Of a DNA stretch of 64,000 bases, positions 12,085 through 34,079 are shown piece after piece. Every line of letters begins with the position of its first letter. Position 1 is the first letter of the stretch. The translations under genes and the position numbers were made by a program. Below the pieces are notes generated by a model that was not told the origin of the DNA, ran no database searches, and worked only from the letters and a program-made list of their open reading frames with translations. The DNA is taken from the NCBI GenBank assembly GCA_964582615.1, contig CAZORP010000004.1:1900-65899 (forward strand), given 5' to 3'. Source of the stretch: an uncultured Gammaproteobacteria bacterium (lineage in GTDB: Bacteria > Patescibacteriota > Patescibacteriia > UBA9934).

Positions 12085-12161
12085 TCTTGGTAATAATCAC
12101 ACTGTACGAACCCCCCACGTGTGGAGCGCCACCAATGAGGTAGAACATAGGCTAGATGTAG

Positions 12162-12533
12162 TTATTCGCCAAATGTCACCACTTCGATATTGTTTCCATC
12201 CGGATCACGTACAAAGGCCGCGTAGTAGTTCTCGCCATACTCTAAGCGAACTCCAGGCTTCCCGTTGTCCGTTCCTCCGGTCGTGAGCGCCAATGCATGA
12301 AATGTATTCACGGCGATACGGCTAGACGCTGAAAATGCGATGTGAACACCATGACAGGCGGGATTTTCATTATCGCCTTGTGAAATCCAAAAGTGGGCGC
12401 GTTCAATACCAAATCCGCAGTAAATACCATCCTCACTGGCGACGACTTTGTAACCCAGAGGCGCCAAGGCTTGTTCGTAAAAAGTTTTACTACGAGAAAA
12501 ATTGCTTACATTGAGAGTGATGTGATCAAACAT
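12162..12533 (-). CDS. VOC-family (glyoxalase / bleomycin-resistance fold) protein
   Basis: MFDHITLNVSNF...H.AF...DPDGN..E pattern; 123 aa. Confidence 0.7.
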   Translation of the reverse strand: MFDHITLNVSNFSRSKTFYEQALAPLGYKVVASEDGIYCGFGIERAHFWISQGDNENPACHGVHIAFSASSRIAVNTFHALALTTGGTDNGKPGVRLEYGENYYAAFVRDPDGNNIEVVTFGE

Positions 12534-14878: not shown

Positions 14879-15823
14879 TCATACCGACTGTGACTGTAGC
14901 AATTTCAGAATCTGTTTCCTCTGATGAATTGGCACCCGAATCCATACCGAGGTGGATTCAGCGACATTCGAAAAGAGCGGTTCAAGTACGCCATGTAACC
15001 ACTCTGAATCATCTGAGTAAAGCAAAGATGACTTCGATGTGATATCGGGAATATTCACCAGGCATCGCTTGTTCCCAAATTCAGACCAGTAGGCGTCGAT
15101 GGCTTCTTTGTAGTGACCTAGAAACGCAACTGGATCTTCGCTAATTTCAAGTTGCGAAAACACGAAGGTCTTATCATTGAAATAATTCTCCATGATCTTC
15201 GTGTCATTTCGGAGCGTCTCATCAAAGTGCTCGCGCATGCCAGCTGCACATTCTTCGAAATAGCGTCGCTCCCAGCCGCCCGACATCGTGACGTGCGGTG
15301 CTAATTCCTTAAATGCCGAAAGATCACGATCGTTCGTCTCTGACGACGTAAAGTTCAAAGTGTTCTGAAGAATTGCCAATGCAAGAACATTGGCACTCGT
15401 CGACGAAATTTTCTCATCGAAACCCCGCTTCTTGAACTCTTCCCAAATCAAGGTACCAGCGGCACCGACGCGTTCAATATGTGAGTGATCGCCGAGCCGT
15501 TCCTTCCAATACTCTTCGTAACCGTAGTGATGATCGTAAATCTCACAGATCTTTGATTCGTCCTCATTGGGAAAAGCAAAATGCTCTGGACCCGAAAGAT
15601 CGACGTAGACAAAACGATCTTCTGTAGTCGGCACATATTCCGTGAGGTAATCGCCTCCCTGTTCAAGAGCTAGTTTTGTAACAGAATGATTAAGCGGACC
15701 AATAAAAACAGCCACCGCATCCTTTCCTTCTTTCTGAAGGAGCTCGGCGTAGGCGATAGCACAACCAAAGGCGTCGATGTCATTAAAAGCCTTTCCGGCG
15801 GATACAATGTACATACTAGCCAC
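14879..15823 (-). CDS. ppaC: DHH-family manganese-dependent inorganic pyrophosphatase (family II PPase)
   Basis: NDIDAFGCAIAYAEL, DHHYGY, GAAGTLI and LALAILQNTLNFTS...AFKELA segments are collinear with family II PPase motifs; 314 aa. Confidence 0.65.
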   Translation of the reverse strand: MASMYIVSAGKAFNDIDAFGCAIAYAELLQKEGKDAVAVFIGPLNHSVTKLALEQGGDYLTEYVPTTEDRFVYVDLSGPEHFAFPNEDESKICEIYDHHYGYEEYWKERLGDHSHIERVGAAGTLIWEEFKKRGFDEKISSTSANVLALAILQNTLNFTSSETNDRDLSAFKELAPHVTMSGGWERRYFEECAAGMREHFDETLRNDTKIMENYFNDKTFVFSQLEISEDPVAFLGHYKEAIDAYWSEFGNKRCLVNIPDITSKSSLLYSDDSEWLHGVLEPLFSNVAESTSVWIRVPIHQRKQILKLLQSQSV

Positions 15824-15863
15824 AGATTACCGCACATTTCCTGAACCGCAAAACTCTCAGTTA

Positions 15864-15953
15864 TTGAAAAACCACCACTAAATGGTGACGGGTTTTCAGC
15901 AGTCGCTTTGGCTAGGAATCCTATAATAGTACCAAAGCGGCTCTTGGCGGGGC
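15864..15953. repeat. intergenic repeat element R1: palindromic terminator hairpin plus tRNA-Trp 3'-end-like fragment
   Basis: ttgaaaaacc-caccactaaatggtg-gggttttca hairpin, then a 28-nt block gggttttcagcagtcgctttggctagga and a 24-nt block accaaagcggctcttggc(g)gggc, both shared with R3 next to tRNA-Trp. Confidence 0.6.
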
Positions 15954-15981
15954 TTAGTAAGCGAGGTTGGAACCTTGATGA

Positions 15982-16431
15982 TCAGCGAGTGATGTATCGA
16001 AGGATGCTGAATTTCGAAGTGGCGGTGTATACAGCCCCATTGTATAAAGCTTCGCCGTCGTTAAGCGTAAGTGTCTCGCGATAGCTATCGCCCTTCTCTC
16101 CAGCCTCCGCGTATTTGAGTGTCAAAATTTCTTGATCGCTATCAGCTTGTCGAGACTCAATCTCCATGATTGAGTAAGAACGTTTTTCGCAATATTTATA
16201 GGCGCTACCGAAACCGGGTGAAGGTTCTGCTTCGGTAACTTCACGACGACATCCTGGGTCTATAGTGACTTTTGTAACAGATTGCGGATAGACGTGGACG
16301 TACGTGATTGCACTCGAAGCATCCTGGGTATGAACATACGAAGCTCGAGGCATCAACAGCCACACGAACACAATGAGTCCGGCGAGCGGCAGTACTCCTA
16401 TTACTGTCAATATTTGCAAGTGATGTTTCAT
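15982..16431 (-). CDS. small membrane-anchored hypothetical protein
   Basis: Internal Met MKHHLQILTVIGVLPLAGLIVFVWLL is followed by a TM helix; the upstream extension of the ORF runs into repeat R4 and is probably not coding. Confidence 0.35.
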   Translation of the reverse strand: MKHHLQILTVIGVLPLAGLIVFVWLLMPRASYVHTQDASSAITYVHVYPQSVTKVTIDPGCRREVTEAEPSPGFGSAYKYCEKRSYSIMEIESRQADSDQEILTLKYAEAGEKGDSYRETLTLNDGEALYNGAVYTATSKFSILRYITR

Positions 16432-16439
16432 ACCGGATG

Positions 16440-16640
16440 AAGCATAGCGGATTTTATCTCTTGCCACAATGCGGATTCGACTCAAAAGGCACCTCACACG
16501 CATGGGTTCGATCCTCTGATGGCATAAACAAAAATCCCCGCTGAAATTAGCGGAGACTTTTGTGGCAGGGCACATGACTACTGAACTCAATTTTCAGAGG
16601 CTTTCAAAGGGTTTCAGGAACTAGATACTGGGACGCAGGT
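16440..16640. repeat. intergenic repeat element R4 with tRNA-like fragments and a terminator
   Basis: tggcagggcac..ctgaactc..ttcag block shared with R2; gggttcgatcc T-loop-like fragment; ccccgctgaaattagcgg hairpin with a T-run on the minus strand. Confidence 0.5.
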
Positions 16641-16682
16641 ACAATTAAATGGATAACTGTATATCGTATGTATTTTAAAAGC

Positions 16683-17525
16683 TCACTCATCTTGAATTAA
16701 ATGGTTGGAAAGATCCATGCTCCCCAATTTTTGGAGCATTGTTTGAAAATCTGTTACTGGATAGAGGAGGCTTATAAATGAAGAAGGAATTGCGGCGTTG
16801 TTGACGGCTGCTCGATCATCAAACCCACCCATAAAATGCAGAAATGCTTGTGTATCTTGTGCTTGAGGAGGAAGATCTTGCATTCTTAAGAGTAAAATTT
16901 TATTAGCGATAGGATTTATATCTGGTGCTGCTAAAATAAATCCCCATTGTGGCGGATTCGTGTTATATTTGAAAATTGATATGAATTGTTCTCCTGATGG
17001 CAGTTCTATTTCTTTCTGCAAGCTCTCTAAAGACTGCCAAGTTGCTATTAGTTTTATACCTTCCCGTTTATTTTCTCCAAGGTTAAAATTTACGACCGAA
17101 CGTTTATTTGTAGTTTTATGATAATCTTCTGCACATTTGACTTCTTCAAATTCGCAAACGCCTTTAATTGATATAGTAAAGAAATGGCCGTTAAGTCTTG
17201 GTAGTGGAACGGATTGTTTTTTGATCGTTGTGATTATTTGACCATCCATTGAAAGATGAGCCTCGCCAAAATAATGATGAGCGAATTTAATTCTACGCCT
17301 TGTAACTTTTGCGAAATCTTTTGTAAGACTTAAGTCAAATTTTTGCGGCATATGGGGAGGCATAATTACGAGGCTCCCCAGCCCTTCAGATTTTTTATAG
17401 TAGGGAAATGTTACATAAACACTACCATCTGAAGAATACAAAATATCAAAAATTTTAAAACACTTTCCTGATTGTGTAACTGTGATTACGTGTCTTTTTG
17501 ATCTTATGGGTGCGAGTATTGCCAT
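16683..17525 (-). CDS. AT-rich orphan hypothetical protein (280 aa)
   Basis: Long ORF with markedly lower GC than the flanking genes (about 22-40% in sampled 60-nt stretches); flanked by R4 and R2. Confidence 0.45.
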   Translation of the reverse strand: MAILAPIRSKRHVITVTQSGKCFKIFDILYSSDGSVYVTFPYYKKSEGLGSLVIMPPHMPQKFDLSLTKDFAKVTRRRIKFAHHYFGEAHLSMDGQIITTIKKQSVPLPRLNGHFFTISIKGVCEFEEVKCAEDYHKTTNKRSVVNFNLGENKREGIKLIATWQSLESLQKEIELPSGEQFISIFKYNTNPPQWGFILAAPDINPIANKILLLRMQDLPPQAQDTQAFLHFMGGFDDRAAVNNAAIPSSFISLLYPVTDFQTMLQKLGSMDLSNHLIQDE

Positions 17526-17528
17526 ACA

Positions 17529-17760
17529 GTTGAAAAACCACCAGACATTGCTGGTGGGTTTTCAACTGCGGTCATAATGCACTTAACTGCCTTTGAGAGA
17601 CGCAGGTATCCGTGAGGATAATTAGCGTTGCCCTAGGTATTCAGGTATTTCGCACCATGACAGCGCTTGGCAGGGCACTCCGCTCCTGAACTCGTTTATT
17701 CAGGGGGTTTCGGAGGATTCTGACGGTATCAAGCGAGGGACTCCGGTCACGTAAACTGTT
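17529..17760. repeat. intergenic repeat element R2
   Basis: ttgaaaaaccaccag-acattg-ctggtgggttttcaa palindromic hairpin; gcgcttggcagggcac and ggactccggtcac blocks shared with R3 and R4. Confidence 0.55.
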
Positions 17761-17790
17761 ACAAAATGTTACATGTGACGGGTATGTTCA

Positions 17791-18177
17791 CTATTCGGTA
17801 CCTTCATCAATATCTTCGATATCTTGGGCTCTTTCGAGAGCTTCCACATCAACTTCGGAACTTAGGTCTTTTAGCTCACTGGATCTATCATCGTCCTGGG
17901 TACCTGTCGGCGAAACTGGCCGGCTGTACTCATCTAATGCATCAAATACAAATGGGAGATGTTCGTCGTAACTTACTTTATAGTTACGCGCATCTACAGT
18001 CTTTTTAATGTCCTTAGTTGCGGCAATTACTTTTTCACGATTTTTAATCCAGTAATCCTTCAACTCGTTTTCCCCTAAAATTTCAGCGATATACTTCGGA
18101 TCAAATTCATATCTCGTCGCCTCAAGCGCCCTGTGATCCTGGAAATGAATGAGTAAGAAATCGGCAAAAAACTCCAC
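17791..18177 (-). CDS. small acidic hypothetical protein (128 aa)
   Basis: ORF immediately downstream of the KAP NTPase gene; D/E-rich C-terminus. Confidence 0.4.
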   Translation of the reverse strand: MEFFADFLLIHFQDHRALEATRYEFDPKYIAEILGENELKDYWIKNREKVIAATKDIKKTVDARNYKVSYDEHLPFVFDALDEYSRPVSPTGTQDDDRSSELKDLSSEVDVEALERAQDIEDIDEGTE

Positions 18178-18204
18178 TGCCCGTTCGTTGCCCTGAGGAT
18201 TGAA

Positions 18205-20904
18205 TCAGACGTCAAAAATGTATACCTGCATCTCCTTACGGATCCCTTCGTTGTCATTGATGCCGTCAGGATCGAATAGACCACTTCCTAAGTCTGAATT
18301 AGTAATCCGATTATTTATTAACTGATAAATAATAAAACTTGCGGAGATAATTTTCTCGGTCTGAACCTCATTACTGATATCTTTCTTTTCCGAGCGGACG
18401 TAACTAAGCGAATCCCCGAATAATTCTTGGTCGCTTAATGCGTAAATATCAGAAATGAAGTTTTTATTCTGACCTACGTATCTATTCTTGAATTCTTTAT
18501 ATACCAACTGAGTAATTCGTCTCACCGTATCTTTACCTTCGTGATCTGTTGTTTCACCAATTTTCTTCGCATATGCACGCAATCCGCGTTCGAGGTTATA
18601 AAAATTACCGCCTCTATATGGACTACAGTGCAAGCGTAACTTGAGACCATCGTAAAACCCAATTACTCCATTTTCTGGATCTAGAACCTTACTAACGACA
18701 CTCTTCCGCTCGCCATCCTCGAACAATGCCTCGGCAATCTGTACGACATTTGTATCATCGTTGTGGTAATAGCCGTCGCGCTGATCTTGCCAGCCTCGTT
18801 GATTCAAAAGGTAGAGTATGCGCAGAGAAATGTCGTCCCGCAAGCCCGTTCCGAGACCATCCATCTCAATCGTCGAGAAACGACGCATGCTCTCCACGAA
18901 CCAGTGGATCGTAGCCAGCGCCGTTTGCTTTGAAAATAGATCCGTATTACGAACCATGGCCTGCAGCAGCAGGCTAAAATGATATTCGGCTGGGTTGCTG
19001 ACAGAGAAAATAAACTCCTCCTCTGAGGCGAGATCGCTCATCGTCTTCTCTCCAGATCCAATCTTCCTTGCTTCATTCACATAAAACTTTTTTGCTTGAG
19101 TTTTGATTTGAGTGACACGTTCGGTCATGAGTCGCAGATAACGCTCCAAACTTCTATCAAGATGGACCGTGCCGTTCATTGCTGCAGAAAAAACACTAAA
19201 ATCATCTTCTTTGTATTTTTTCGAGAATAATTGTGCGTCAAAAAGGTTTCTTAACAAAAATCTTTCGGCATCTGTCTTTTTCAATAAGTACTCTTTGAAA
19301 AATGCTGAATTTTCATATGAACTTTTTGAGCTTTCCCATTTCCACTTAATAGAAAAGTGCTCTTTTCCGTTAATTTCGGCCGTGTAAATGTCTCGAAAAG
19401 TTTCCGAAAAATTTAGATGCAACAAAAACAGGTTGATCAAATCGTAACCCTCAAAATCAAGCTGTTCGACATCCAGATCCAACAGTCGTAATCGGATAGT
19501 ATTTACCAATCGTTTTATTTTTCGAATATCACCCAAGACATCCTTGTATCTATAAAAGATCTCGGGTTTGAATACTTCATCAATTGCTTTCTCCATTGAT
19601 TCTTTCGAAGTTGGCGTAAATGAAGAGCCCTCTTCCTCTGTCTGCTCAAATAATTTATCTATAAGATATTTTTTAAGCATTTCTGGATTAATCGTTAAAA
19701 CCTGCTTCACCGTAACTACTTTCTCGAAGTATTCCCTGATCTGAGCGGTATCGATCGATTCACGTTCAATTTTAACCAACCTAGGATCATGATCGTTATC
19801 TGGCTTTTTACCCTGAGTGGTTTTCTCCGTCTGATCTGAGCCGCCTAGAGAAACCTGAAGGTGCTCTCGCGTCTTCGTGAGATGATAAAAGCTATTAACG
19901 TTCTGCGTATCGAAACAAGTTACAAAGGAAATATATGGCAGCTTGAGACTGACACGGATTACATCGATAAAGCGCTTCACCTCATCAATGGGAAGCCTAT
20001 CAAGATCATCAATAACAATGACGAGTCGCCGCCGGGCGATTTCCAGCTGCTCTCGAATCGCCTGAACTCTATCTTCGTCAGACAGCGAATCCGGAATAAA
20101 CGACGCTAACTCTAACTTAAATAACTTCGGATAAGGCTCAATCGCCTTGGCGTACCTTGCAAAGTAATCTCCAAGTTGAGGAACGAAATTATTCTCATCT
20201 AAAAAGCCAGACAGCTGTCGTAGGAATGCCGAAAGTACATGATCTTGATCGTATCTTAATGGTTCAAATGAAAAGACTAGCGCACCAGTCTCTTCGAGAC
20301 GCTTTTTACAAAAATGAAGATACGATGACTTGCCGTAGCCCCACGGTGCATCAATTCCGAATACAAGGCTATTTGGAGACCCATTATTTTCAAGTTTATT
20401 GGCAAAATCAATCGCGTCATTCTTAACACCAAGTACGTCCGATTCTTCATCGTCAGAGAGTGGTTCATCGGATAGAAAAAATGGCTTCACTGTATTCTTA
20501 TTCTTCAAACCGAGACGCCAACCTCTCAAATGTGTAGCAGCGATTATGACAATGATTAACTTAATAACCTCAAAGAGAGCTCCATTAAACAGTGGCAAAA
20601 ATGACCACTCGGCAAAGCATGCTCTGATGACTTCATGGTATCCCGCCGCCATCCCGACACCTAGGATTACCGAGATAGCGGAATCCCACTCGGATTCTAG
20701 ATGTCTAATGATTTTAAATGCGGGAAATACGACGAGCACAAGAAAGCCAATCGCGATCAGTGGAATCGCAAATAGCGCGGCAGGCTGATACTTTTCAAAA
20801 CTTTCATAACCCAATAAAACCGCCAATGCTATGCCGATCGAGACCGTGAAGATCTGAACATTCTTCTTCACTCTAGCTGTAAGTATTGTTTTGGTTAATG
20901 ACAC
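18205..20904 (-). CDS. KAP-family P-loop NTPase with N-terminal 4-TM membrane anchor
   Basis: Walker A GIDAPWGYGKSSY; Walker B LVIVIDDLDR; 899 aa; four N-terminal hydrophobic helices. Confidence 0.7.
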   Translation of the reverse strand: MSLTKTILTARVKKNVQIFTVSIGIALAVLLGYESFEKYQPAALFAIPLIAIGFLVLVVFPAFKIIRHLESEWDSAISVILGVGMAAGYHEVIRACFAEWSFLPLFNGALFEVIKLIIVIIAATHLRGWRLGLKNKNTVKPFFLSDEPLSDDEESDVLGVKNDAIDFANKLENNGSPNSLVFGIDAPWGYGKSSYLHFCKKRLEETGALVFSFEPLRYDQDHVLSAFLRQLSGFLDENNFVPQLGDYFARYAKAIEPYPKLFKLELASFIPDSLSDEDRVQAIREQLEIARRRLVIVIDDLDRLPIDEVKRFIDVIRVSLKLPYISFVTCFDTQNVNSFYHLTKTREHLQVSLGGSDQTEKTTQGKKPDNDHDPRLVKIERESIDTAQIREYFEKVVTVKQVLTINPEMLKKYLIDKLFEQTEEEGSSFTPTSKESMEKAIDEVFKPEIFYRYKDVLGDIRKIKRLVNTIRLRLLDLDVEQLDFEGYDLINLFLLHLNFSETFRDIYTAEINGKEHFSIKWKWESSKSSYENSAFFKEYLLKKTDAERFLLRNLFDAQLFSKKYKEDDFSVFSAAMNGTVHLDRSLERYLRLMTERVTQIKTQAKKFYVNEARKIGSGEKTMSDLASEEEFIFSVSNPAEYHFSLLLQAMVRNTDLFSKQTALATIHWFVESMRRFSTIEMDGLGTGLRDDISLRILYLLNQRGWQDQRDGYYHNDDTNVVQIAEALFEDGERKSVVSKVLDPENGVIGFYDGLKLRLHCSPYRGGNFYNLERGLRAYAKKIGETTDHEGKDTVRRITQLVYKEFKNRYVGQNKNFISDIYALSDQELFGDSLSYVRSEKKDISNEVQTEKIISASFIIYQLINNRITNSDLGSGLFDPDGINDNEGIRKEMQVYIFDV

Positions 20905-21353
20905 AGTTGTATGCGGAAAACCCTATCAAAATTGCGGCCAAATGACCAGCTCAAATGTCATGCAGAAAAGTCATTCTTCTTATCGTGCACAAAAAGCACA
21001 TTCTGACTCATACTGTACTATTTTGTACCAAAATAAGGCACTTATGCACAGATTCTCTCCGGAAAATTGACGTTGATTGTACGGGCGATAAAATATCTGT
21101 TGATCGCAATCACGATTACTAACTCGTAACTCATTTTTGCCCATGCAAATGTAAAACTATTGACGCGCATGACATGTCTTCTGGCGCAATGATGCTAAGA
21201 CCATCGATGCCAAAGACAAAAAGCTATGAACATTACTGCTCCGAAGGAGGGAGCAAATCAGCAATAGCCTTTTGTTTTTGTTATCGATCTCGTTAGGAAG
21301 TCCTATCGAATCGGTAGGGCTTCTTTGCTTTTTAACAACTTAATTTCAAATGT

Positions 21354-22631
21354 ATGCCTACTCAGATACAAACCACGTATGTTCCCATAACTAATCTGAA
21401 TCCCGCGCTCTACAACCCGCGCAAATGGGACAAAGAGGCGACGAAGAAGCTCCGCGAAAGCTTGGAGCGATTCGGCTTCGTCGACCCCATCCTCGTAAAC
21501 GGCGCACCCGATCGCATGAATATTGTCATCGGTGGTCATTTCCGTCTCAAAGTTGCGAAGGATATGGGCATGACGGAAGTCCCTGTCGTCTATCTCCATA
21601 TCCCAGACATCGAGAAGGAGAAGGAACTCAACCTTCGTCTCAATCGTAATACCGGTACGTGGGATTACGACCTTCTCAAGGCATTCGATACTAACTTCCT
21701 ACAGGATGTCGGCTTTGATGCGTTGGACCTCCAGAATGTCTGGGGAGATCTTGCATCCATCGACGACCGACTCATTCTGAAGGAGGGTGAGGTTGAACCT
21801 CCAGAAAAACCAACCATTCAAGATGGCGAAATCTATAAGCTCGGAGATCATCTTTTGATGTGTGCGGATTCTACAGGCCCCGCCAATGCCGCTCGTCTCA
21901 TGAGAGAAGAAAAAGCAGACATGATCTATTGTGATCCTCCGTATAACATCAAACTAGATTACGCGAATGGCGTTTCAACGGACGGCAAATACGCTGGGCA
22001 AGTAAATGATGCGTTGCCAGACGGTGAGTACCAAGAATTCATCAAAAAATCAGTCGAGGTTGCACTATCCGTCGCGAAGCCCGACGCACACATCTTTTAC
22101 TGGTGTGACCAGAGGTATATCTGGTTGGTTCAGCGTGTATATCGGCACTGGAAGATTGAAAATCGCCGCGTGTGCTTGTGGATCAAGAACAACTTCAACA
22201 TGACTCCGCAGGTTGCCTTCAATAAGGCATACGAGCCGTGCGTCTATGGAACGATCGGAAAGCCATACCTCAATCCTGATGTCACGAATCTTCACGAGAT
22301 CGTGAACAAAGACGTGGACGCGGGTAACCGAGCAACGAGCGACATCATCGATCTTTTTGACATCTGGCTTGCGAGTCGTGATGCAGGACAGGAATACGAA
22401 CACCCGACTCAAAAACCCCTCTCACTCCACGAGAAGCCACTGAAACGCTGCACAAAGCCGGGTGACGTTATCTTGGATCTCTTTGGTGGCAGCGGATCGA
22501 CGCTTCTTGCGTGCGAGCAAATGCGTCGCAAAGCAAGGCTCATAGAAAAGAATCCTGCATTTTGTCACGTCATCATCAAAAGATTCGAGGAGATGACCGG
22601 TCTTAAGGCTGAAAAAGTAACGAGTAACTAA
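21354..22631 (+). CDS. ParB-like nuclease domain fused to a beta-class N6A/N4C DNA methyltransferase
   Basis: N-terminal ParB/Srx-like region (YNPRKW...VNGAPDRMNIVIGGHFR); MTase motif IV CDPPYN before motif I FGGSGST. Confidence 0.75.
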   Translation: MPTQIQTTYVPITNLNPALYNPRKWDKEATKKLRESLERFGFVDPILVNGAPDRMNIVIGGHFRLKVAKDMGMTEVPVVYLHIPDIEKEKELNLRLNRNTGTWDYDLLKAFDTNFLQDVGFDALDLQNVWGDLASIDDRLILKEGEVEPPEKPTIQDGEIYKLGDHLLMCADSTGPANAARLMREEKADMIYCDPPYNIKLDYANGVSTDGKYAGQVNDALPDGEYQEFIKKSVEVALSVAKPDAHIFYWCDQRYIWLVQRVYRHWKIENRRVCLWIKNNFNMTPQVAFNKAYEPCVYGTIGKPYLNPDVTNLHEIVNKDVDAGNRATSDIIDLFDIWLASRDAGQEYEHPTQKPLSLHEKPLKRCTKPGDVILDLFGGSGSTLLACEQMRRKARLIEKNPAFCHVIIKRFEEMTGLKAEKVTSN

Positions 22632-22632
22632 T

Positions 22633-23418
22633 ATGGAAATTCAAAACGGTGCATTCATTCAACTTGGAAAGCATCGGCTTCTATGCGGTGATTCAACGAA
22701 TCCTTCAGATGTCGCAATGCTTCTTGGAGATACCCGCATCGATCTCGTGCTCACAGATCCTCCTTACGGCGTCGGTTATGTGGAAAGCAAGGAAGGATTC
22801 ACGCAGGAACTCGCTAAACCGAAGGTCATCGAGAATGATCACGTACAGACCGAAGAAGAGTATTTGGAGTTCACTAAGAAATGGCTCTCACTTATTCCTC
22901 CGTACCTCACAGATAAGAACGCGATCTACATCTTCAATACCGACAAAATGCTCTTTCCATTGCGAGCGGGTATGGAGTCATGTGGCATGAAGTTTGCGCA
23001 GCTCCTCATCTGGGCTAAGACTCATGCGGTCATTGGTCGCTTGGATTATCTTCCGCAGCACGAACTTATTGCTTACGGCTGGCACGGGACGCACGCGTTC
23101 AAGAAAGCCAAGGACAAAAGCATCCTCGTGCACCCAAAACCCGCCAAGAGCAAGTATCACCCGACCATGAAGCCGATTGGTCTTCTACGACGTCTTATTC
23201 TTAATAGCTCAGATGTTGGTTCAAACGTCTTTGATCCTTTTGGTGGAAGCGGCTCAACACTCCTTGCTTGCGAGCAAACAGGGCGTGTCTGCTTCATGAT
23301 CGAGAAAGACAAAGAGTACTGCCAAACCATCGTGAGTCTCTATGAACGCATGACGGGCGACGTCGCGGTAGTAATTGAACCAGCATATGGAGGAACCGAA
23401 GCAGCAACGCCGGTATGA
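22633..23418 (+). CDS. beta-class N6A/N4C DNA methyltransferase, paralog of the upstream MTase domain
   Basis: TDPPYGVGY and FGGSGSTLLACEQ; C-terminus near-identical in pattern to the upstream gene. Confidence 0.75.
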   Translation: MEIQNGAFIQLGKHRLLCGDSTNPSDVAMLLGDTRIDLVLTDPPYGVGYVESKEGFTQELAKPKVIENDHVQTEEEYLEFTKKWLSLIPPYLTDKNAIYIFNTDKMLFPLRAGMESCGMKFAQLLIWAKTHAVIGRLDYLPQHELIAYGWHGTHAFKKAKDKSILVHPKPAKSKYHPTMKPIGLLRRLILNSSDVGSNVFDPFGGSGSTLLACEQTGRVCFMIEKDKEYCQTIVSLYERMTGDVAVVIEPAYGGTEAATPV

Positions 23419-23926
23419 GAACGCTCAACGTCGGAAGGCTAAACAGAAACTACAAATCATCAATACGCTTCGAGAGACGGGCAATATCGAGGCCGCCTGT
23501 CGCAAAGTCGGCATCGCGCGCAATACGTATTACGTGTGGGCTAAGGATGATCACGAATTCAAGATTGAAGCCGAGAAGGCTCTTGTCATTGGCACCGAGG
23601 TAGTTTGTGACACTCTTGAAAGCAGGTTAGTCGCTCGAGCGAATTCGGGCGAGGGCTGGGCGTTGAAGTACTATCTCGGGAATAAGCATCCAGATTACAG
23701 TCCGCGAGCCAGCGCCCGCAAATATCATCGAGAGAATGAGCAGTCTGATGAATTCTCTGATGAAGATGAGCGCCACATTGAGCATGCTCTAAAAATGCTC
23801 GAGTACTTGGAGCCCTGTGAGGACCCGTCCCACCATGGCCACAAGATGCTACCTCCGCCTCCGCCGGCGGCTGTCAATGACAAAGCAGGCGACGACGACG
23901 AGGATCTTGACGGTGCATTTAGCTAA
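23387..23926 (+). CDS. HTH protein resembling terminase small-subunit / transposase-type HTH, with an acidic C-terminal tail
   Basis: GNIEAACRKVGIARNTYYVW helix-turn-helix; start could also be 23375. Confidence 0.4.
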   Translation: MEEPKQQRRYENAQRRKAKQKLQIINTLRETGNIEAACRKVGIARNTYYVWAKDDHEFKIEAEKALVIGTEVVCDTLESRLVARANSGEGWALKYYLGNKHPDYSPRASARKYHRENEQSDEFSDEDERHIEHALKMLEYLEPCEDPSHHGHKMLPPPPPAAVNDKAGDDDEDLDGAFS

Positions 23927-24529
23927 CTACTTTGTCACTTCCGTAGAAAGGAAAACCGTGGTGGTCTGCTTCGTGGCATCGTTTACCGCAACGAGTCCAT
24001 AGCCGATCGTGTCACTTGGGATTTCATAAACGATCACGCCCTTCTTTGGAATGGACGGACTGAGCGTCTGAACTTCCAAATAGTTATCGATAGATCCGAT
24101 GGTGTCATCGTAGGTCGTATAACCCCGCCCTTCGCCATCTCCGAGTCGCAAGTACTGGTTTGGCATGTAGAGAAAATCCGAGGTCGACTTCGAGGTCACT
24201 TGCAGTTCAATAATGACAAACTTCGTCCCCTCAACGGCAGCGACCGGCTTGCCGTAGCGTGAACTCATGGTTTGCGCCTCACGGACACTGAGAACCTTCA
24301 TCTCATGCGTTGCGAGGTCGATTGGATTGTTGATCTTTGCCTCGACGACTTCTTTCTCGGAATTCTTGGTGTTCGTAGTTATGGAACCGGACGGAGTTAC
24401 CGTGGTCTTTGGACGATCGCTTCCGTCATCCATGTACGGTGCGATAATGAAAATGAACAAAATGAAACCGAGGACTCCCGTGAGGATCTTATGCTGCTTG
24501 AACCAGCTCTGTTTTGGGTCATTCGACAT
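23927..24529 (-). CDS. membrane-anchored DUF4352-like protein
   Basis: N-terminal TM helix; Thr/Ser-rich linker; beta-rich domain with YLRLGDGEGRGY...VIVYEIP. Confidence 0.4.
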   Translation of the reverse strand: MSNDPKQSWFKQHKILTGVLGFILFIFIIAPYMDDGSDRPKTTVTPSGSITTNTKNSEKEVVEAKINNPIDLATHEMKVLSVREAQTMSSRYGKPVAAVEGTKFVIIELQVTSKSTSDFLYMPNQYLRLGDGEGRGYTTYDDTIGSIDNYLEVQTLSPSIPKKGVIVYEIPSDTIGYGLVAVNDATKQTTTVFLSTEVTK

Positions 24530-24879
24530 AGTAAAGCGTATGAGGAATTAATCCCGAGTATTGCTAAAACAAAAAGCGACACCCGGTGGCGCTTTACAAC
24601 CCAGCCCAAGCACGGATCGTGCAAGGTCTGTTTTAACCGGATGCCGCTCATTGCGCGCGATCCGGAAATAGCCAAATACGGCCTGCAAAGGCTGAGTTGT
24701 AAAGCACCGACATAGTAGCATAGGCACCCCCAAAGTAAAGCGATTTGCTCAGTATTTTGCCTTTCCTTATACCTTGAGGGCTTTTGAGTTACCTACAGGT
24801 CTGGGGCTAGGCACCCCGGACAGGTGTGGCATCAATGTAGCTGTCCCCTAGGGAACTAGGGCGCACAAACTACGAACAT

Positions 24880-26295
24880 ATGCCGGAACACAATCCGCTC
24901 CACAGTCCCACGCTTCTCGCGGAAAATAGAGCTAACAATATAGGTAAAGGCGATGCAAAAGTTGATCTTCGGTATTGCCTCTATGCACGCAAGTCATCCG
25001 AAGATGACGAACGTCAAGCGTTGTCCATCGATTCACAAATCAACGAAATGATGGAACTGGCGAGAAAGGAAGGAATGGACATCGTTGAGACGCGTCGAGA
25101 GAGTCATTCAGCAAAGTCATCCGGCGAGCGACCGGAATTCAATCAATTGATGATCGATATCGATAAAGGACTCTTCAATGCCATTCTCACATGGGCGCCA
25201 GATCGCTTGAGTCGTAACGCTGGAGATCTTGGGTCACTCGTTGATCTCATGGATCGTGCGAAGCTTCATGAGATCAGGACGCACTCACAGAAGTTCACGA
25301 ACTCACCGAATGAAAAGTTCCTCCTGATGATCCTCGGAAGCCAGGCAAAGCTCGAGAATGACAATCGCGGTATTAATGTAAAACGTGGCCTCAAGAACAA
25401 AGTTGAAATGGGATGGCGGCCAGGACTTCCGCCCCTTGGCTACTACAACGAGAGATCAATTAATCGCGGTCAGAATAGAATCTTCATCGATGAAGAACGT
25501 GCACCGACCATTAAAAAGCTCTTTGAACTCGTCGCGTACGAAAAGATGACTGGAAGGGCACTTTTTACCTACTTGAAAGAGATTAATTTCAAAACGCGAA
25601 CCGATAAATTCGTCAGTGTTAGTAGCGTCTACAAGATCCTCAAGAACAGATTTTATTACGGCGAGTTCGAGTTCCCGGAAGGGAGCAGCAAGATCTATAA
25701 GGGAGCACACGAACCGCTTATAACAAAAGAGTTGTTCGATCGCGTACAAAATCAGCTCACTATTCCCGACCGACCAATCCAAGGCATTAAAGAATTCTCT
25801 TTTACGAAGATGTTCAAATGCGGCGCATGCGGCTCCGGCATCACCGCAGAGGAAAAGATTAAGAAGATCAAAGGAACAGAAGAGATACGAAAATACATCT
25901 ACTATCGGTGCGGAAAATCCAACGGGCGTATCTGTGACGAGAAGCCGATGCGTGAACAAGATATCCTCAATCAGCTCCTAGAACTTATTGATTCAATCGA
26001 GATCGATAGGATTGGTGCGCAAAAACGCATCGAAGACGAGCTGAAGCGTTACGCTGCATTCTCAGAAGGGGTGCTCGGAAAGAAGATCAATAAGCCAAAA
26101 CAAAAGGAGGTCAGCATTCGAAAATATGCAAAGCATATTCTCACAAATGGAACTCGCGAGGAGAAGCGAGAAATTCTGGAGCATGTAAAACACTGTATAG
26201 TGATATTCAATAGAGCTCTAAAGCTCGAATCCCTGGCACTGCCTAATGAAGCAAGAGAAGACCCCCCACGTTTAGAGAAACGCGGGGGGTCATGA
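24880..26295 (+). CDS. large serine recombinase (integrase)
   Basis: Resolvase catalytic region YARKSSEDDERQALSIDSQ; recombinase domain; zinc-ribbon CGACGSG...YYRCG; coiled-coil C-terminus. Confidence 0.8.
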   Translation: MPEHNPLHSPTLLAENRANNIGKGDAKVDLRYCLYARKSSEDDERQALSIDSQINEMMELARKEGMDIVETRRESHSAKSSGERPEFNQLMIDIDKGLFNAILTWAPDRLSRNAGDLGSLVDLMDRAKLHEIRTHSQKFTNSPNEKFLLMILGSQAKLENDNRGINVKRGLKNKVEMGWRPGLPPLGYYNERSINRGQNRIFIDEERAPTIKKLFELVAYEKMTGRALFTYLKEINFKTRTDKFVSVSSVYKILKNRFYYGEFEFPEGSSKIYKGAHEPLITKELFDRVQNQLTIPDRPIQGIKEFSFTKMFKCGACGSGITAEEKIKKIKGTEEIRKYIYYRCGKSNGRICDEKPMREQDILNQLLELIDSIEIDRIGAQKRIEDELKRYAAFSEGVLGKKINKPKQKEVSIRKYAKHILTNGTREEKREILEHVKHCIVIFNRALKLESLALPNEAREDPPRLEKRGGS

Positions 26296-26297
26296 AG

Positions 26298-27143
26298 TCA
26301 CTCGAGGCGTCGAATCGCAGCCCGGAGGACGTCGGCTGCGAGGGTGTTGGGCTTATACCTCAGACCGAGAACGCTCCGAGGCAACTCACCGCACGTGATA
26401 CCGAGGGAATCGTAAAAGTCTGCGGTTGCACCGAGGACTCTTCTCGAAAACTCTCGTTCGACGTTCTTCGGAATCGAAGCCCACTGCGTGGGCTTCCCGA
26501 ACGGCAAGACATAGGGAGCTCCGGTATTCAGAAGGCCCATGACCGTTCTTCCGGAAAGTGGCGCACCCGGCATGAAGTCTCGTTCGCAGATCTCATCTGT
26601 GACTTCGGAGTATTCACGTACTGCCGTGACAGAGCAGTTACGTGCCCGCAGTCGCTCAATACCTTCACCGATTGCGACACCGGCGAAAACGTGGCCAACC
26701 CGAATGTTTCGCTCCAGGAAGAGATCGATGATGCGTTCCATCATCGCTCCGCTGAAAACCACGTCATCCACGAGAGCTATGTCACGCTCATGGATAGTCG
26801 CAGCTACCTCGTCCACGATGGCGGTCAAATCCGTGTAGATGCCATCTCTCGTCCCGTAACCAGCATCACGTAGACCGCCATCAACCAGTCTGGTGACGTT
26901 GATCTGCAGCGCTCTCGGTGCGTAGACTCGATCCAGGCTGACGACCGGGAACGAAGAGTTGGCGAGGATATCCGAGAGCCCATCACGCAGCTCGCTCTCG
27001 GAAATCCATTCAGTCGAGCCAACGCTAACGTGCAAGGCGCTCTTCACCTCAGCGCGAAACCCCTCCAACACCGTATCGGGAACAACAAACCCAGCCTCTC
27101 GCCACAGCGTAGCGAGATCACAGGACACAACGTACGGACGCAT
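26298..27143 (-). CDS. type I phosphoribosyltransferase-domain protein, GC-rich
   Basis: PRPP-binding motif IALVDDVVFSGAMM; GC content clearly above that of its neighbours. Confidence 0.5.
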   Translation of the reverse strand: MRPYVVSCDLATLWREAGFVVPDTVLEGFRAEVKSALHVSVGSTEWISESELRDGLSDILANSSFPVVSLDRVYAPRALQINVTRLVDGGLRDAGYGTRDGIYTDLTAIVDEVAATIHERDIALVDDVVFSGAMMERIIDLFLERNIRVGHVFAGVAIGEGIERLRARNCSVTAVREYSEVTDEICERDFMPGAPLSGRTVMGLLNTGAPYVLPFGKPTQWASIPKNVEREFSRRVLGATADFYDSLGITCGELPRSVLGLRYKPNTLAADVLRAAIRRLE

Positions 27144-27220
27144 GTCGAACTCCTTGGAACCTCCCAGCGTCTTTGCCGGGAGGGAGCGAATGCACTGCTT
27201 TCACTGCAACCGATCCCTTC

Positions 27221-27772
27221 CTACAAAGAAGGGATTTGATGCACGACACGCACCGCTTGGATGGCCATAGCGACCGCAGCTTCCGGAGTTGATGCAACTT
27301 CGATACGTACTCGTTCACGCGGGTCAATAAATGTCCCAGCGAGACGTTCACTCCAGCCGCCAGTATTCTCGATGGTAATAATCGGAATATTGGCCTGATA
27401 GGCGATAGCCATTTCCGTGAGTGTTCCGGAGCCACCGTTTAAACAAATGATTGCATCGCAAGATGATACAAGTACAAACTCTCGACCGCCGCCACGACCC
27501 ATACCTGCCGTGACAATTGCGTCAGCGTTCTTTTCAACAACACCGTCAATGTCTTTGCCGTAGGTAACCCCAACCACAAAGCCTCCCGCACGCTTTGCAC
27601 CGCGGCAGGCGGCGGATGAAAGCGAATCAAGGTCTTTCTCTGCGCCGAACAATAAAATCGCACCCGCTTTCGCAATCTCTTCACCGACGCTTTCGGCTAA
27701 CACTGCAATCTTCGTTGAGTACTGAAGATCCGAACAAGAGCCCATCACGCCAATCTGTAATTTTCGTTTCAT
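27221..27772 (-). CDS. LOG / TIGR00725-like Rossmann-fold nucleotide-binding protein
   Basis: IGVMGS start and NGGSGTLTEMA (GGxGTxxE) motif. Confidence 0.55.
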   Translation of the reverse strand: MKRKLQIGVMGSCSDLQYSTKIAVLAESVGEEIAKAGAILLFGAEKDLDSLSSAACRGAKRAGGFVVGVTYGKDIDGVVEKNADAIVTAGMGRGGGREFVLVSSCDAIICLNGGSGTLTEMAIAYQANIPIITIENTGGWSERLAGTFIDPRERVRIEVASTPEAAVAMAIQAVRVVHQIPSL

Positions 27773-30806: not shown

Positions 30807-31544
30807 TTACTTTTTAGCAAAGCCGGTAAATGCCTGCAAAACTTCAAGAGGAACAGTGAATACAACAGTGTTGCTCTGATCGGAGCTAATGTCGTTAATA
30901 GCATGAAGCGTGCGAAGATGAAGTGCTCCGGGAGCTTCCGAGAGCATGCGTGCGGCGTTGGCGATATTTTCTGCGGCGCGCATTTCTCCTTCGGAGTTAA
31001 TAACGACTGCGTCGCGTTCGCGTTCAGCCTCTGCTTTCTTTGCCATGGTGCGAACCATTTCTGGGGCGAGGTTGATATCTTTCAACTCCACCGAAGAAAC
31101 TTCCACACCCCACATTGCGGTAACTGTTTCAAGAAGTTGTTCAATTTTTTGGGAAATAATCGCACGACCAGCAAGAAGTTCATCGAGTGTTGCTTCACCG
31201 ACAACGTTGCGCATGGTGGTTTGCGCAAGTTGCATAACTGCGTAGTGGACGTGCTCAACTTCAAGAACCGATTTTGCAGGATCGGAAATACGGTAATAAA
31301 TAACTGCATTGATTTTTGCAGAAACGTTGTCTTTGGTAATAGCATCTTGAGAGGGGACGTCAAGCGCTTTTACGCGAAGATCAACCTTCTGCATGCTTTG
31401 AAATACGGGAATAACCAATCTCCATCCCGGGTTTACGGTTGATGAATATGTTCCCATGGTAAAGGTAATTCCACGCTCGTATTGATTAACCTGTCGAAGT
31501 GATGAAATAAGTCCCACGATGACGATGATAAAAAGAAGTTCCAT
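30807..31544 (-). CDS. SPFH / band-7 (stomatin/prohibitin-like) membrane protein
   Basis: TM anchor then SPFH core (LDVPSQDAITKDNV...EATLDELL...AEAERER); start set at an internal Met to avoid overlap with htrA. Confidence 0.7.
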   Translation of the reverse strand: MELLFIIVIVGLISSLRQVNQYERGITFTMGTYSSTVNPGWRLVIPVFQSMQKVDLRVKALDVPSQDAITKDNVSAKINAVIYYRISDPAKSVLEVEHVHYAVMQLAQTTMRNVVGEATLDELLAGRAIISQKIEQLLETVTAMWGVEVSSVELKDINLAPEMVRTMAKKAEAERERDAVVINSEGEMRAAENIANAARMLSEAPGALHLRTLHAINDISSDQSNTVVFTVPLEVLQAFTGFAKK

Positions 31545-31614
31545 AAAAGTTTTTACTACGTTCACCCTACAGGAATTTGAAGATTTTTGCAAGATTTTTT
31601 ATGCTCATAAAGCT

Positions 31615-32838
31615 ATGACATTTCATGAACAATCTCCTATGGGAAAAATCTTTATTTGGGGTATGTGCGGTGGCATGGTGGCTTTTTTCTTGCTTTGCGC
31701 GGGAATGTATGGAGGAATCGTATATTATGGAATTCCGTCATCGCTTCTTGCTGAAATTACGCCAGAGTTAAGCGATGCTCTTCCAAGGTCGCCTGCTTCA
31801 TCTCTCGCATCTGATCCTGTGGTTGCCGTTGCCGACGCGGCAAGTCCCGCGGTGGTTTCTCTTGTTGTGAGTAAAGAAGTTCCTCAGATGGAAAAATTTT
31901 ATAAAAATATTCTACCGTTTGGTTTTTCGGTGCCTTCATATCGTCAGGTTGGTACAAAAGAAGAGGAAGTTGCTGGTGGAACAGGATTTTTCATTTCCCC
32001 TGATGGATATCTTGTAACAAATAATCACGTCATTGATATCGAAGAGTCTTCGTATACGGTGTACCTTAACGATGGAACGTCGTATCCGGCAACGCTTATT
32101 GCCGCCGACGAAATGCTCGACGTTGCGTTGCTTAAAGTTGAGAGCCCTTCGGCGCTTCCTTTTCTTGAATTTGGATCGTCCGATGAAGTACGCGTTGGAC
32201 AGGCGGTGGTCGCGATAGGAAATGCGCTTGGCGAATATCGTAATACCGTATCTTCCGGAGTTATTTCAGGAGTTTCTCGTACGGTTGTTGCGCAAAAGGG
32301 GGGAGGTGACGAGGAACGTCTTCAGGATATTTTGCAAACTGACGCGGCAATTAATCCGGGAAATTCTGGAGGGCCGTTGTTGGATCTTTCGGGTAAGGTT
32401 ATTGGTGTAAACGTCGCCGCCTCTGCGGGTGGAGCTGAGAATATCGGTTTTGCGCTCCCGTCCTCTGCAGTTTCCTCGGCTGTTAATTCTCTTCGTGAGC
32501 ATGGCTATGTTGTGCGTCCGTGGCTTGGTGTTCGATATGCAATGATTTCGGAAGATATGGCGAAAGAGGAGTATCTTCCCGTGAATCACGGAGCGCTCAT
32601 TCGTCGTTCTTCGGAGAACGATCTTGCGGTTATTCCCGGATCACCCGCCGACAAAGCTGGACTTGAAGAGAACGATATTATTACAAAGGTTAACGGAAAA
32701 GACCTTACGGAAGCCTACGATCTTCGTTTGGCAATGCAGGGTTTGCACGTTGGCGATGTACTCGAGCTTGAGGTATTTCATGACGATGGTGTAAAAACGG
32801 TACATGTAACGCTTTCGGAAGGTCCGAAGAGCTTGTAA
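31615..32838 (+). CDS. htrA: HtrA/DegP-family serine protease with PDZ domain
   Basis: TNNHVI (His), GNSGGPL (Ser) and a PDZ-like C-terminus; start at an internal Met. Confidence 0.8.
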   Translation: MTFHEQSPMGKIFIWGMCGGMVAFFLLCAGMYGGIVYYGIPSSLLAEITPELSDALPRSPASSLASDPVVAVADAASPAVVSLVVSKEVPQMEKFYKNILPFGFSVPSYRQVGTKEEEVAGGTGFFISPDGYLVTNNHVIDIEESSYTVYLNDGTSYPATLIAADEMLDVALLKVESPSALPFLEFGSSDEVRVGQAVVAIGNALGEYRNTVSSGVISGVSRTVVAQKGGGDEERLQDILQTDAAINPGNSGGPLLDLSGKVIGVNVAASAGGAENIGFALPSSAVSSAVNSLREHGYVVRPWLGVRYAMISEDMAKEEYLPVNHGALIRRSSENDLAVIPGSPADKAGLEENDIITKVNGKDLTEAYDLRLAMQGLHVGDVLELEVFHDDGVKTVHVTLSEGPKSL

Positions 32839-32839
32839 T

Positions 32840-33673: not shown

Positions 33674-33806
33674 ATTTGCTAAAAAAGTATAAAATTACTG
33701 GGGTTTTCTTGTGGTTCTTGTTGATAACTTATTAGGAGATTTATCGTACTGTGCTACGCTTTCCCCGCAAAATCTTAATATTTTCTTTGATATGGCAGCA
33801 AAGCGC

Positions 33807-34079
33807 ATGACAAAGAGTCAGATGATCGCAGATCTTTCTGAACGCTGGGGAGTTTCTAAGAAGCAAGCAGGAGAGATGTACGATGGTCTTCTCGAACTTG
33901 CATACAAGGAAATCAAGCGCGCAGGCGAGTTTGTAATGCCTGGACTTGGTAAGCTTGTAAAGAAGAACCGCCCAGCACGTCAGGGTCGCAACCCAGCAAC
34001 GGGTGCAACTATCAAAATCCCTGCAAAGACCGTTATCAAGTTTACGGTTGCAAAGGCGGCAAAGGAAGCTCTTCTTTAA
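33807..34079 (+). CDS. hup: HU-family DNA-binding protein
   Basis: MTKSQMIADLS...PARQGRNPATGATIKIPAKTVIKF; 90 aa from the internal Met. Confidence 0.75.
   Translation: MTKSQMIADLSERWGVSKKQAGEMYDGLLELAYKEIKRAGEFVMPGLGKLVKKNRPARQGRNPATGATIKIPAKTVIKFTVAKAAKEALL

Follow-up and report, generated by a model that had tools for sequence, protein, structure and literature searches.

A compact serine-recombinase island carrying two DNA methyltransferases and a TerS-like protein, and its relatives in genomes mostly titled Patescibacteria

Closest described systems

The closest described counterparts of the locus analysed here, a ~5.3-kb island in a 64-kb stretch of contig CAZORP010000004.1 (source run SRR16481183; the whole stretch is called the window), are the satellites of the phage-inducible chromosomal island (PICI) type. 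The island encodes a DNA methyltransferase (MTase) fused to a ParB/sulfiredoxin (Srx) domain, a second, stand-alone MTase (MT2), a helix-turn-helix (HTH) protein resembling the small terminase subunit (TerS) and a large serine recombinase (LSR). As in PICI-type satellites, the island is small and integrated (~5 kb, the family median being ~6 kb), has an integrase at one end and possesses its own small-terminase gene but no capsid, portal or tail genes; copies without the large terminase subunit (TerL) keep TerS alone, and related islands contain defence cargo (type I restriction-modification (R-M), a reverse transcriptase with bAvd, a Pycsar-like effector). Unlike in PICIs, the integrase is an LSR, most members of the family also carry TerL, no primase or replication module was recognised, two DNA methylases belong to the core and the hosts are mostly Patescibacteria by record title. 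Considered as a PICI-like element, the window copy offers the LSR-bearing island of ~5.3 kb, the TerS-like gene and the lack of structural genes, and it would be induced by a helper phage and packaged in its capsids; a repressor or regulatory switch and a replication module of its own were not recognised in the window.

The fusion of ParB and MTase domains is also found in phages, with full-length homologues in 311 annotated phage genomes. Those of the temperate phages Javan117 and phi1207.3 (32-33% identity over 97-99%) fall into the same family as the island protein, phrog_498, and are encoded just upstream of terS-like, terL and portal genes. In Streptococcus phage Javan117 (MK448672.1) the ParB-MTase is followed by a small HTH protein, TerL, the portal and a minor capsid protein, and in a phage contig, L087 (related loci are designated by L numbers), by a 141-aa protein read as TerS, TerL and the portal (phrog_2662, 2e-126). 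Javan117 and phi1207.3 are phages of 36-55 kb with complete structural modules, whereas the island module ends in an integrase. We regard the phage order (ParB-MTase, TerS, TerL, portal) as the ancestral arrangement. Two candidates were discarded: the 259-aa gene following the ParB-MTase of Javan117 shows no homology to MT2, and L062, considered as a true phage with the same module, has helicase-like or unknown genes downstream and not a portal. At the level of DNA similarity, positions 21000-27200 gave only two short matches (~60-95 nt) with 50,697 phage records.

Fusions of a ParB-CTPase fold with an N6_N4 MTase are enriched in phages and prophage regions and are suspected to have an anti-defence role (PMC12704722). 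In the parts of that survey considered here, the fusions have the same architecture as the first protein of the island, which keeps their NPR and GxxR-type residues; a linkage with TerS, TerL and LSR and islands of Patescibacteria are not described in those parts. Both MTases of the window have, as CcrM (6pbd) and 8urk/9c3u, the motif DPPY before FxGxG. They differ from CcrM by scores far below its equivalog cut-off (57.5 and 67.8 vs 830 bits), by the lack of a C-terminal CcrM-type domain and, for one of them, by the ParB domain. The HTH protein has its described counterpart in the TerS of phBC6A51 type (PF13022), whose structure 2ao9 is regarded in the literature as a TerS nonamer (PMC7672466): its relatives are named for phBC6A51, many of them match PF13022, and 2ao9 is a top, non-significant, fold match. 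Unlike this type, the window protein stays below the PF13022 cut-off and has a 40-residue acidic/proline-rich tail. The parts of the island are of known kinds (ParB-MTase fusions, TerS, LSR islands, satellites); the family that combines them is apparently undescribed, and none of the open-access literature searched describes it.

The island in the window

The island and its main genes have the following positions.

21000..26295 (approximate ends), plus strand: whole island (leader, ParB-MTase, MTase, TerS-like, DUF4352, RNA, LSR), ~5.3 kb
21354..22631, plus strand: ParB/Srx N-domain fused to a beta-class N6/N4 DNA methyltransferase (ORF1), 425 aa, assigned by Pfam and phrog_498
22633..23418, plus strand: stand-alone beta-class DNA methyltransferase (ORF2/MT2), 261 aa, N6_N4_Mtase 118.1 bits (cut-off 26.7)
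23387..23926, plus strand: TerS-like HTH protein, 179 aa from ATG 23387 (183 aa from TTG 23375), phrog_4044 7.2e-9
24880..26295, plus strand: LSR, 471 aa, Pfam Resolvase 81.1, Recombinase 61.5 and Zn_ribbon_recom 29.7 bits, all above cut-off

The original prediction, made from the letters of the DNA, had described the first three of these open reading frames (ORFs). All three are present at the positions it gave, with the ParB-MTase fusion, the beta-class motif order and Pfam scores above cut-offs, and the overlap of about 30 nt between the HTH gene and MT2 amounts to 32 nt from ATG 23387 (public gene call) or to 44 nt from TTG 23375. What it had missed is the context: an LSR is located 950 bp downstream, so that the segment constitutes a discrete integrative island, and the island is one member of a large family, most of whose loci come from metagenome-assembled genomes (MAGs) titled Patescibacteria. 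The LSR consists of a Resolvase catalytic domain, a Recombinase domain and a zinc ribbon, which is the architecture expected of a large serine recombinase. It matches the integrase family phrog_95 at 6.8e-65 and reaches no NCBIfam equivalog (CcrB 105 vs 900 bits); no NCBIfam family scored above cut-off for any of the core genes.

Gene order and surroundings of the related islands

A scan of species-representative genomes detected 194 stretches with ORF1 relatives, from which 80 loci were kept, and 18 loci were added from IMG/VR. Synteny was analysed by tblastn with the window proteins and by all-against-all clustering of naive ORF calls, and the counts refer to the 56 loci with enough downstream sequence (evaluable loci). 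Most of the 80 genome loci come from records titled Patescibacteria or candidate phyla radiation (CPR), including Saccharimonadia, Gracilibacteria, Peribacteria, Moranbacteria, Uhrbacteria, Woesebacteria, Nomurabacteria, Kaiserbacteria and others. The module is also present in the closed genomes OY970181.1, OZ246394.1, CP129476.1, OZ246423.1 and OY781871.1.

Dozens of genome loci have the genes in the order ParB-MTase, MTase, TerS, TerL, LSR. The TerL of this order is a protein of ~500 aa (cluster C3) that matches phrog_38 from end to end (2.3e-73) and Terminase_6C with 25.9 bits (cut-off 22.6). MT2 orthologues (47-67% identity) occupy the same position in 43 evaluable loci, and the TerS-like protein and TerL are each present in 41, the TerL gene coming after the TerS-like gene in 35; no TerL is found downstream in the window. 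LSR orthologues (44-55% identity) flank the module in 44 evaluable loci, downstream on the same strand in 35 and upstream in divergent orientation in 8. From the start of the ParB-MTase to the end of the LSR, the median distance is 6.1 kb (range 3.1-11.2 kb).

Where annotation is available, the islands lie between genes of the host. In the closed chromosome L047, genes of AcrB, cation-efflux and HlyD type are directly upstream of the six-gene unit, and the left flank of L009 contains a glycerol kinase, a glycerol-3-phosphate dehydrogenase and a Cys/Met pyridoxal-phosphate enzyme. In four independent contigs annotated with Pfam (L100-L103), four or five core genes are inserted between TetR/ABC-transporter, two-component or defence genes. 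Portal, major capsid and tail genes are absent beside the module in the window and within ~10 kb in the related loci. A census of 137 non-core neighbours from 48 loci showed no head or tail family, and neither portal nor capsid, among the 25 most frequent of 120 PHROG families, while helicases, MTases, a reverse transcriptase and repressors were among the recurrent ones, and the portal and capsid proteins of phage-like IMG/VR contigs have no homologue in the genome loci. The family is compact, host-flanked where annotated and without detectable capsid, portal or tail genes. These data support the phage or satellite origin that had been proposed for the segment. The search for a terminase, portal or capsid nearby, which had been advised, gave TerL and portal in related phages and nothing beside the module in the window; no conjugation genes were seen, against the alternative of an integrative and conjugative element (ICE).

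Traces of insertion are visible in several members. L100 and L101, from two samples and with the same TerS protein, share a 6.56-kb unit (TetR, LSR, ParB-MTase, MTase, TerS, TerL) that is 98.3% identical, the left flanks being 92.9% identical and the right flanks unrelated. In L100, ~100 nt past the unit (12092-12480), an apparent tRNA 3' end (GGTTCGAATCC...CCCCA) is followed by ~85-nt tandem repeats containing it, a pattern typical of repeated integration into a tRNA gene; the L101 sequence at that position is unrelated to that of L100. Several MAG isolates contain two loci each (L010/L042, L016/L026 and L057/L058).

A maintained copy without TerL

A tblastn search (E<1e-3) detected no TerL anywhere in the 64-kb window. 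The order of ParB-MTase, MTase, TerS-like gene and minus-strand DUF4352 gene is the same in L104 (Logan run SRR30542704), the closest relative, which likewise lacks TerL. Nucleotide identity between window and L104 is 76% over the whole blastn match, and the three proteins compare as follows (dS is saturated).

ParB-MTase: amino acid identity 84%, dN/dS 0.04
MTase (MT2): amino acid identity 77%, dN/dS 0.06
TerS-like protein: amino acid identity 61%, dN/dS 0.12

The TerS proteins of TerL-less islands are also longer than the others (median 170 vs 144 aa; Mann-Whitney p=0.003). In a rough neighbour-joining tree, most of them (window, L002, L015, L028/29) are placed apart from the TerL-linked proteins and the others are near the root. 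Because of the order common to L104, the low dN/dS values and the length and clade of TerS, the TerL-less form is an old maintained variant rather than a recent deletion. The window copy, which lacks TerL, is not decaying: it is stable and subject to purifying selection.

The TerS-like protein

The window protein matches the TerS family phrog_4044 (7.2e-9) and three further TerS PHROGs. Among 55 aligned relatives, 54 match phrog_4044 (best E 7.5e-13) and 40-45 match three other TerS families. A single-sequence homologue search returned the protein itself and one relative only, so that a profile was needed; the profile search of a large protein collection recovered 307 relatives, many of them with PF13022 and some named 'phBC6A51 family helix-turn-helix protein' by NCBI. 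The residues W55, D79 and L101, invariant in the family, are kept in the window protein. An AlphaFold (AF2) monomer model from 66 sequences has a mean confidence (pLDDT) of 76, with values above 90 for residues 11-80. Matches to HTH domains of transposases and regulators are weak and all below cut-offs (e.g. NCBIfam IS3 19.7 vs 160 bits), and the profile-vs-PDB sequence search found HTH-level matches only (E>0.05). The family matches and the TerL gene that comes next in 35 evaluable loci support the assignment to the TerS family, as the original prediction had it, and this evidence is stronger than that for a transposase or a regulator, the outcome that was to speak against it. A small terminase would be expected to form an oligomeric ring and to bind a pac or cos site.

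The C-terminus is a long acidic/proline-rich tail of 40 residues with low model confidence. Acidic tails of GDDDED type occur in TerS-like proteins of TerL-less islands (window residues ~145-183, preceded by a proline run; L016, L026) and are missing in the TerL-linked relatives. The tail could serve for interaction with a foreign TerL or portal.

The two methyltransferases

In ORF1, ParB_N (PF02195) covers residues 9-87 (35.2 bits, cut-off 26.3) and N6_N4_Mtase (PF01555) residues 189-408 (104.8 bits, cut-off 26.7), and the match to phrog_498 extends over residues 3-421 (1.2e-97). The ParB part matches the structures of Spo0J, Noc and ParB (E 3.5e-5 to 1e-3), and the NPR box (N21-P22-R23) and GGHxR (G60/R63) are at least 80-95% conserved in 90 orthologues. 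ORF1 is not a canonical partition ParB: it has the N-domain alone, it scores 28.1 bits with TIGR00180 (cut-off 58.45), and no ParA gene is found among the neighbours examined. The motif DPPY (motif IV) is located at about residue 193 of ORF1 (CDPPYN) and 42 of ORF2 (TDPPYG), and FGGSGST at about residues 377 and 203; since DPPY precedes FGGSGST, both enzymes have the beta-class order. The two motifs are conserved in 90 orthologues of ORF1 and 66 of ORF2. The closest solved MTases to the ORF1 MTase part are 8urk and CcrM 6pbd (E ~1e-10 to 1e-11), and for both MTases together the best solved-structure sequence matches are CcrM (6pbd) and 8urk/9c3u (E 1e-10 to 2e-16).

The MTase domains of ORF1 and ORF2 are 28% identical (74/265, E=1e-27), and ORF2 is an old paralogue of the ORF1 MTase domain. 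Their C-terminal modules had been called near-identical, which is overstated for domains of such identity and applies to one 13-residue block, FGGSGSTLLACEQ, identical in the two proteins and detected in the DNA as a 51-nt repeat of 82% identity (22471-22521 and 23228-23278). The block FGGSGSTLLACEQ is kept across the whole family and is therefore not specific to this pair.

Restriction-enzyme models matched none of 10 neighbouring proteins (PADLOC), and no such match was found with Pfam. The neighbours are a KAP NTPase, a DUF4352 protein and the LSR, with no restriction enzyme, so the locus does not qualify as a type II R-M system. Both MTases are orphans, in agreement with the original prediction.

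Proposed function and alternative explanations

The reading that we favour, with some reserve, is that the three genes form the core operon of an LSR-integrated, phage-derived island in which the methylases protect the island itself and TerS redirects the packaging of a helper. The LSR at the right end would insert and excise the island. The two MTases, which probably modify N6 of adenine in different target sequences, would methylate the island DNA so that it survives restriction on entering a new cell, and the ParB/Srx domain, in which the nucleotide-binding residues are conserved, may tether or load the first MTase on DNA. Island DNA would be marked for packaging by the TerS-like protein. 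In the TerL-bearing relatives the island's own TerL would then act, whereas copies without one would enlist, in the manner of PICI-type satellites, the TerL and capsids of a helper phage that resides in the same cell or infects it. With clearly less assurance, the whole set of loci may be taken for an undescribed family of capsid-less terminase-encoding islands, mostly of Patescibacteria, that are phage satellites or self-packaging hitchhikers of CPR phages and include a sub-lineage with a new ~150-nt RNA. Should this hold, the huge uncultured CPR radiation would have its first satellite-type system, and one with DNA methylases as core rather than accessory genes. CPR/Patescibacteria represent a large share of bacterial diversity and, to our knowledge, almost nothing is known about their phages or about gene movement from one of these bacteria to another; the island is a concrete candidate vehicle of gene transfer and of defence cargo in CPR. 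It also provides a natural setting to ask about the role of ParB-MTase fusions, which are common in phages and functionally unexplained. The island serine integrases, once their att sites are mapped, could add to the recombinases used for genome engineering.

Several points weigh against this interpretation. Neither a helper phage nor an excision junction nor an encapsidated copy was seen, packaging by a helper is a pure inference, and no replication gene, repressor or excision-directionality factor was found in the window copy. The att sites were not definable, as a repeat search of 15500-27500 gave no convincing terminal direct or inverted repeats. The scan of the related loci covered ~10 kb on either side, and structural genes could be more distant; the PHROG census of neighbours is incomplete, and ~20 record titles name non-CPR taxa (labels as recorded). 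The TerS assignment draws on profile matches (E ~1e-9 to 1e-13) and synteny; the window protein scores 21.6 bits with PF13022 (cut-off 27.9), and the top Foldseek matches in the PDB, 2ao9 and Sf6 gp1, are non-significant (E 1.4-1.9). Finally, N6-adenine is suggested as the target base only by DPPY and by nearest relatives of CcrM, DpnA and RsrI type.

An unlikely alternative is a mobile island independent of any capsid, in which the LSR moves the DNA, the MTases protect it on entry (e.g. by natural transformation) and the TerS-like protein acts as a regulator or as the directionality factor of the LSR. LSRs require a small accessory protein for excision, no other candidate for it is evident in the window, and the TerS-like protein, small and of HTH type, matches transposase and regulator HTH domains weakly; in addition, TerL is dispensable across a whole clade and no helper was identified. 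Against this alternative stand the matches of nearly all aligned members (54/55) to TerS PHROGs, and the bona fide TerL gene that follows the TerS-like gene in 35/56 evaluable loci, usually overlapping it, an arrangement hard to explain without packaging. The locus could also be what is left of a decaying prophage, the end of an early region and terS remaining by an integrase after deletion of TerL and the structural genes, with no function of its own; the original prediction had mentioned a remnant packaging module. The missing TerL, the phages in which the same order continues to the portal and the visible damage in some members (TerL in L100, LSR in L018, MT2 in L043) fit this explanation, which we hold to be improbable: all genes of the window are intact, dN/dS is 0.04-0.12 against a diverged relative with the same TerL-less order (dS saturated), the TerL-less TerS proteins belong mostly to one old clade with a distinctive longer form, and the same compact gene set, adjoined by host genes where annotated, is found in dozens of distantly related genomes.

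Domestication as epigenetic regulators of the host, with CcrM-like orphan MTases in gene regulation or the cell cycle and an incidental mobile context, is very improbable. It is in line with the strong purifying selection on the genes and with CcrM-type adenine MTases as the best NCBIfam and PDB relatives, whose equivalog cut-off is nevertheless far above the scores obtained (57.5 and 67.8 vs 830 bits); against it, the genes always travel with TerS, TerL or LSR, at varying chromosomal sites and sometimes as two loci per MAG, and their homologues are typical phage genes. We give hardly any credit to a defence module of R-M type, in which a TerL-like ATPase-nuclease restricts, the MTases protect self and the window copy has lost the nuclease. 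The relatives do combine one or two MTases, an HTH protein that could pass for a controller and an ATPase-nuclease, and decaying R-M systems commonly lose the restriction enzyme and keep the MTase. C3, however, matches genuine TerL families end to end (phrog_38 and Terminase_6C), no defence-system model beyond generic MTase models was matched, and the same genes precede the portal in real phages. The preferred reading, of a maintained mobile island, describes a window segment that is neither an R-M system nor a dead prophage stump.

Leader, structured RNA and other features of the island

The remaining features of the island are the following.

21067..21094, plus strand: promoter-like site TTGACG-16-TAAAAT, best sigma-70-type match in 20800-26500 (10/12; consensus match only)
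21110..21353, plus strand: structured leader with a terminator-like hairpin, minimum free energy -69.3 kcal/mol, z = -4.4
23927..24529, minus strand: DUF4352 membrane-anchored cargo gene, 200 aa, Pfam 34 bits, phrog_806 8e-19
24572..24724, plus strand: structured RNA motif of ~150 nt with covariation, between DUF4352 and LSR
24787..24838, strand not assigned: conserved stretch just 5' of the LSR start, possibly a promoter of the LSR or an att-related site, 86% identical to L002 19743-19794

The promoter-like site is conserved in L104. None of 200 shuffled sequences was as stable as the leader, in which the terminator-like hairpin (21295-21325) has a 14-bp stem and a T run and lies 28 nt 5' of the ParB-MTase ATG. 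The segment ~21170-21345 is almost invariant with respect to L104, the leader alignment having a mean column identity of 85% vs 76% for the whole match, and the 350 nt upstream of ORF1 are better conserved with this one close relative than is the coding sequence. The leader suggests an operon controlled by attenuation or antitermination. A promoter, a structured leader and a terminator before a packaging operon resemble the antitermination-controlled late operons of lambdoid phages, and expression of the operon might be gated in the same manner. Together with the RNA motif, the leader offers handles on regulation.

The DUF4352 family is also present in 17 related loci and in L104. Its gene and that of the LSR are separated by a 350-nt spacer, in which the RNA motif is located. 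The motif has 75-90% nucleotide identity in related islands, though their proteins are only ~50-60% identical. With the first 7 copies, RNAalifold predicted 43 pairs, of which 13 have compensatory changes, and among the first 98 loci a covariance model detected 7 strong copies and 2 weak ones. More copies were recovered by pattern scans of IMG/VR and JGI metagenomes, with module genes on the same strand where the flanks sufficed. In 14 distinct copies, 92.5% of cells pair vs 23-38% in slid controls (the alignment is model-fitted, which favours structure), and 14 of 41 pairs change on both sides vs 1-4 in controls; none of 500 shuffles reaches the observed values. The G:U pairs place the RNA on the plus strand. 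No match was found in Rfam 15, either with gathering thresholds over the whole window or in E-value mode over 24450-24950. Copies are located in L002 (13314-13465), L008 (18611-18758), L009 (18652-18809), L011 (11186-11336), L013 (11907-12057), L021 (16801-16960), L105 and L109-L114. The hairpin CCGGAUGCCGCUUAUUGCGCGCGAUCCGG is invariant. The RNA always has the direction of the MTase-terminase module and is positioned 3' of it and 5' of the LSR, where it is often flanked by cargo genes on both sides. A further small covarying hairpin was seen by eye in a region left unpaired by the model. An antisense RNA to terS, prompted by the longest inverted pair (23490-23524/24650-24684, 74%), was rejected, as duplex scans of 8 loci gave no consistent terS target.

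The stretch 24787..24838 contains an imperfect inverted repeat (read by eye), and its counterpart in L002 is likewise just upstream of an LSR gene.

Island ends and flanking genes

Homology with L104 starts at 21007 (blastn) or ~20970 (tblastx) and the genes upstream of that breakpoint are unrelated in window and L104, which places the left end near 21000. On the right, the LSR stops at 26295 and a convergent 281-aa gene (26298-27143, minus strand) ends 2 nt later; the terminator-like hairpin of this gene (26291-26260, minus strand) sits inside the last LSR codons. The GC content of the module is 0.47-0.51 vs 0.41 in the left flank. An empty integration site was not found by exact-protein look-ups with the KAP NTPase and the 281-aa right neighbour, which returned the source contig alone or no match.

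The left flank (15982-20904, minus strand) is a low-GC block (0.41) of four minus-strand genes. One codes for a P-loop NTPase of the KAP family (899 aa), in which the N-terminus has a weak match of PifA type, and the other three code for proteins without family matches. This block may be a separate defence or abortive-infection islet beside the MTase island, and the stretch 16-27 kb looks like a variable hotspot. The right flank comprises a phosphoribosyltransferase (PRTase)-like gene, a SLOG-family gene, histidyl-tRNA synthetase and tRNA-Trp. The first two (26298-27772, minus strand), namely the 281-aa protein, with weak matches to adenine/hypoxanthine PRTases, and a SLOG cluster-4 (LOG-like) protein, have the highest GC of the region (0.53) and may be a nucleotide-processing pair. 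Gene order is common to window 30807-38482 and to L043 13408-19617, from a Candidatus Uhrbacteria MAG, with 34-78% protein identity. In L043, the ParB-MTase and a truncated MT2 are beside tRNA-Gln, just upstream of the same conserved gene as in the right flank of the window, which suggests an insertion hotspot common to both and puts the organism of the window close to Patescibacteria of Uhrbacteria type.

Variation among related islands

Damaged members of the family include L100, where TerL is truncated by comparison with L101, L018, with a split LSR, and L043, with the truncated MT2. In L017, L064-L066 and L074, the place of TerS and TerL is taken by a different set of three conserved proteins (~129, 70 and 510-610 aa), and the two of these that were tested had no PHROG match. 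A longer serine recombinase (565-577 aa) follows in L065 and L066, and in L065 a primase/helicase-like gene precedes the ParB-MTase.

LexA-like (S24) repressor genes are found upstream in ~12 related loci. In L009 (5812-9861), L010, L014, L019, L045 and L077, such a gene lies on the opposite strand in a left arm, with a small XRE/Cro-like gene and sometimes an HNH endonuclease, and a protein of 200-270 aa, with a C-terminus that is winged-helix-like by eye, is encoded directly upstream of the ParB-MTase. The window copy is devoid of these left-arm genes.

Concerning the cargo, reverse transcriptases occur in L004, L009, L014, L036 and L102, with small adjacent genes in L004 and L009; in L102 the adjacent gene is bAvd-like, which points to a diversity-generating retroelement. 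The cargo further comprises type I R-M genes (hsdM/S/R), an OLD-family nuclease and a Pycsar-effector-like protein.

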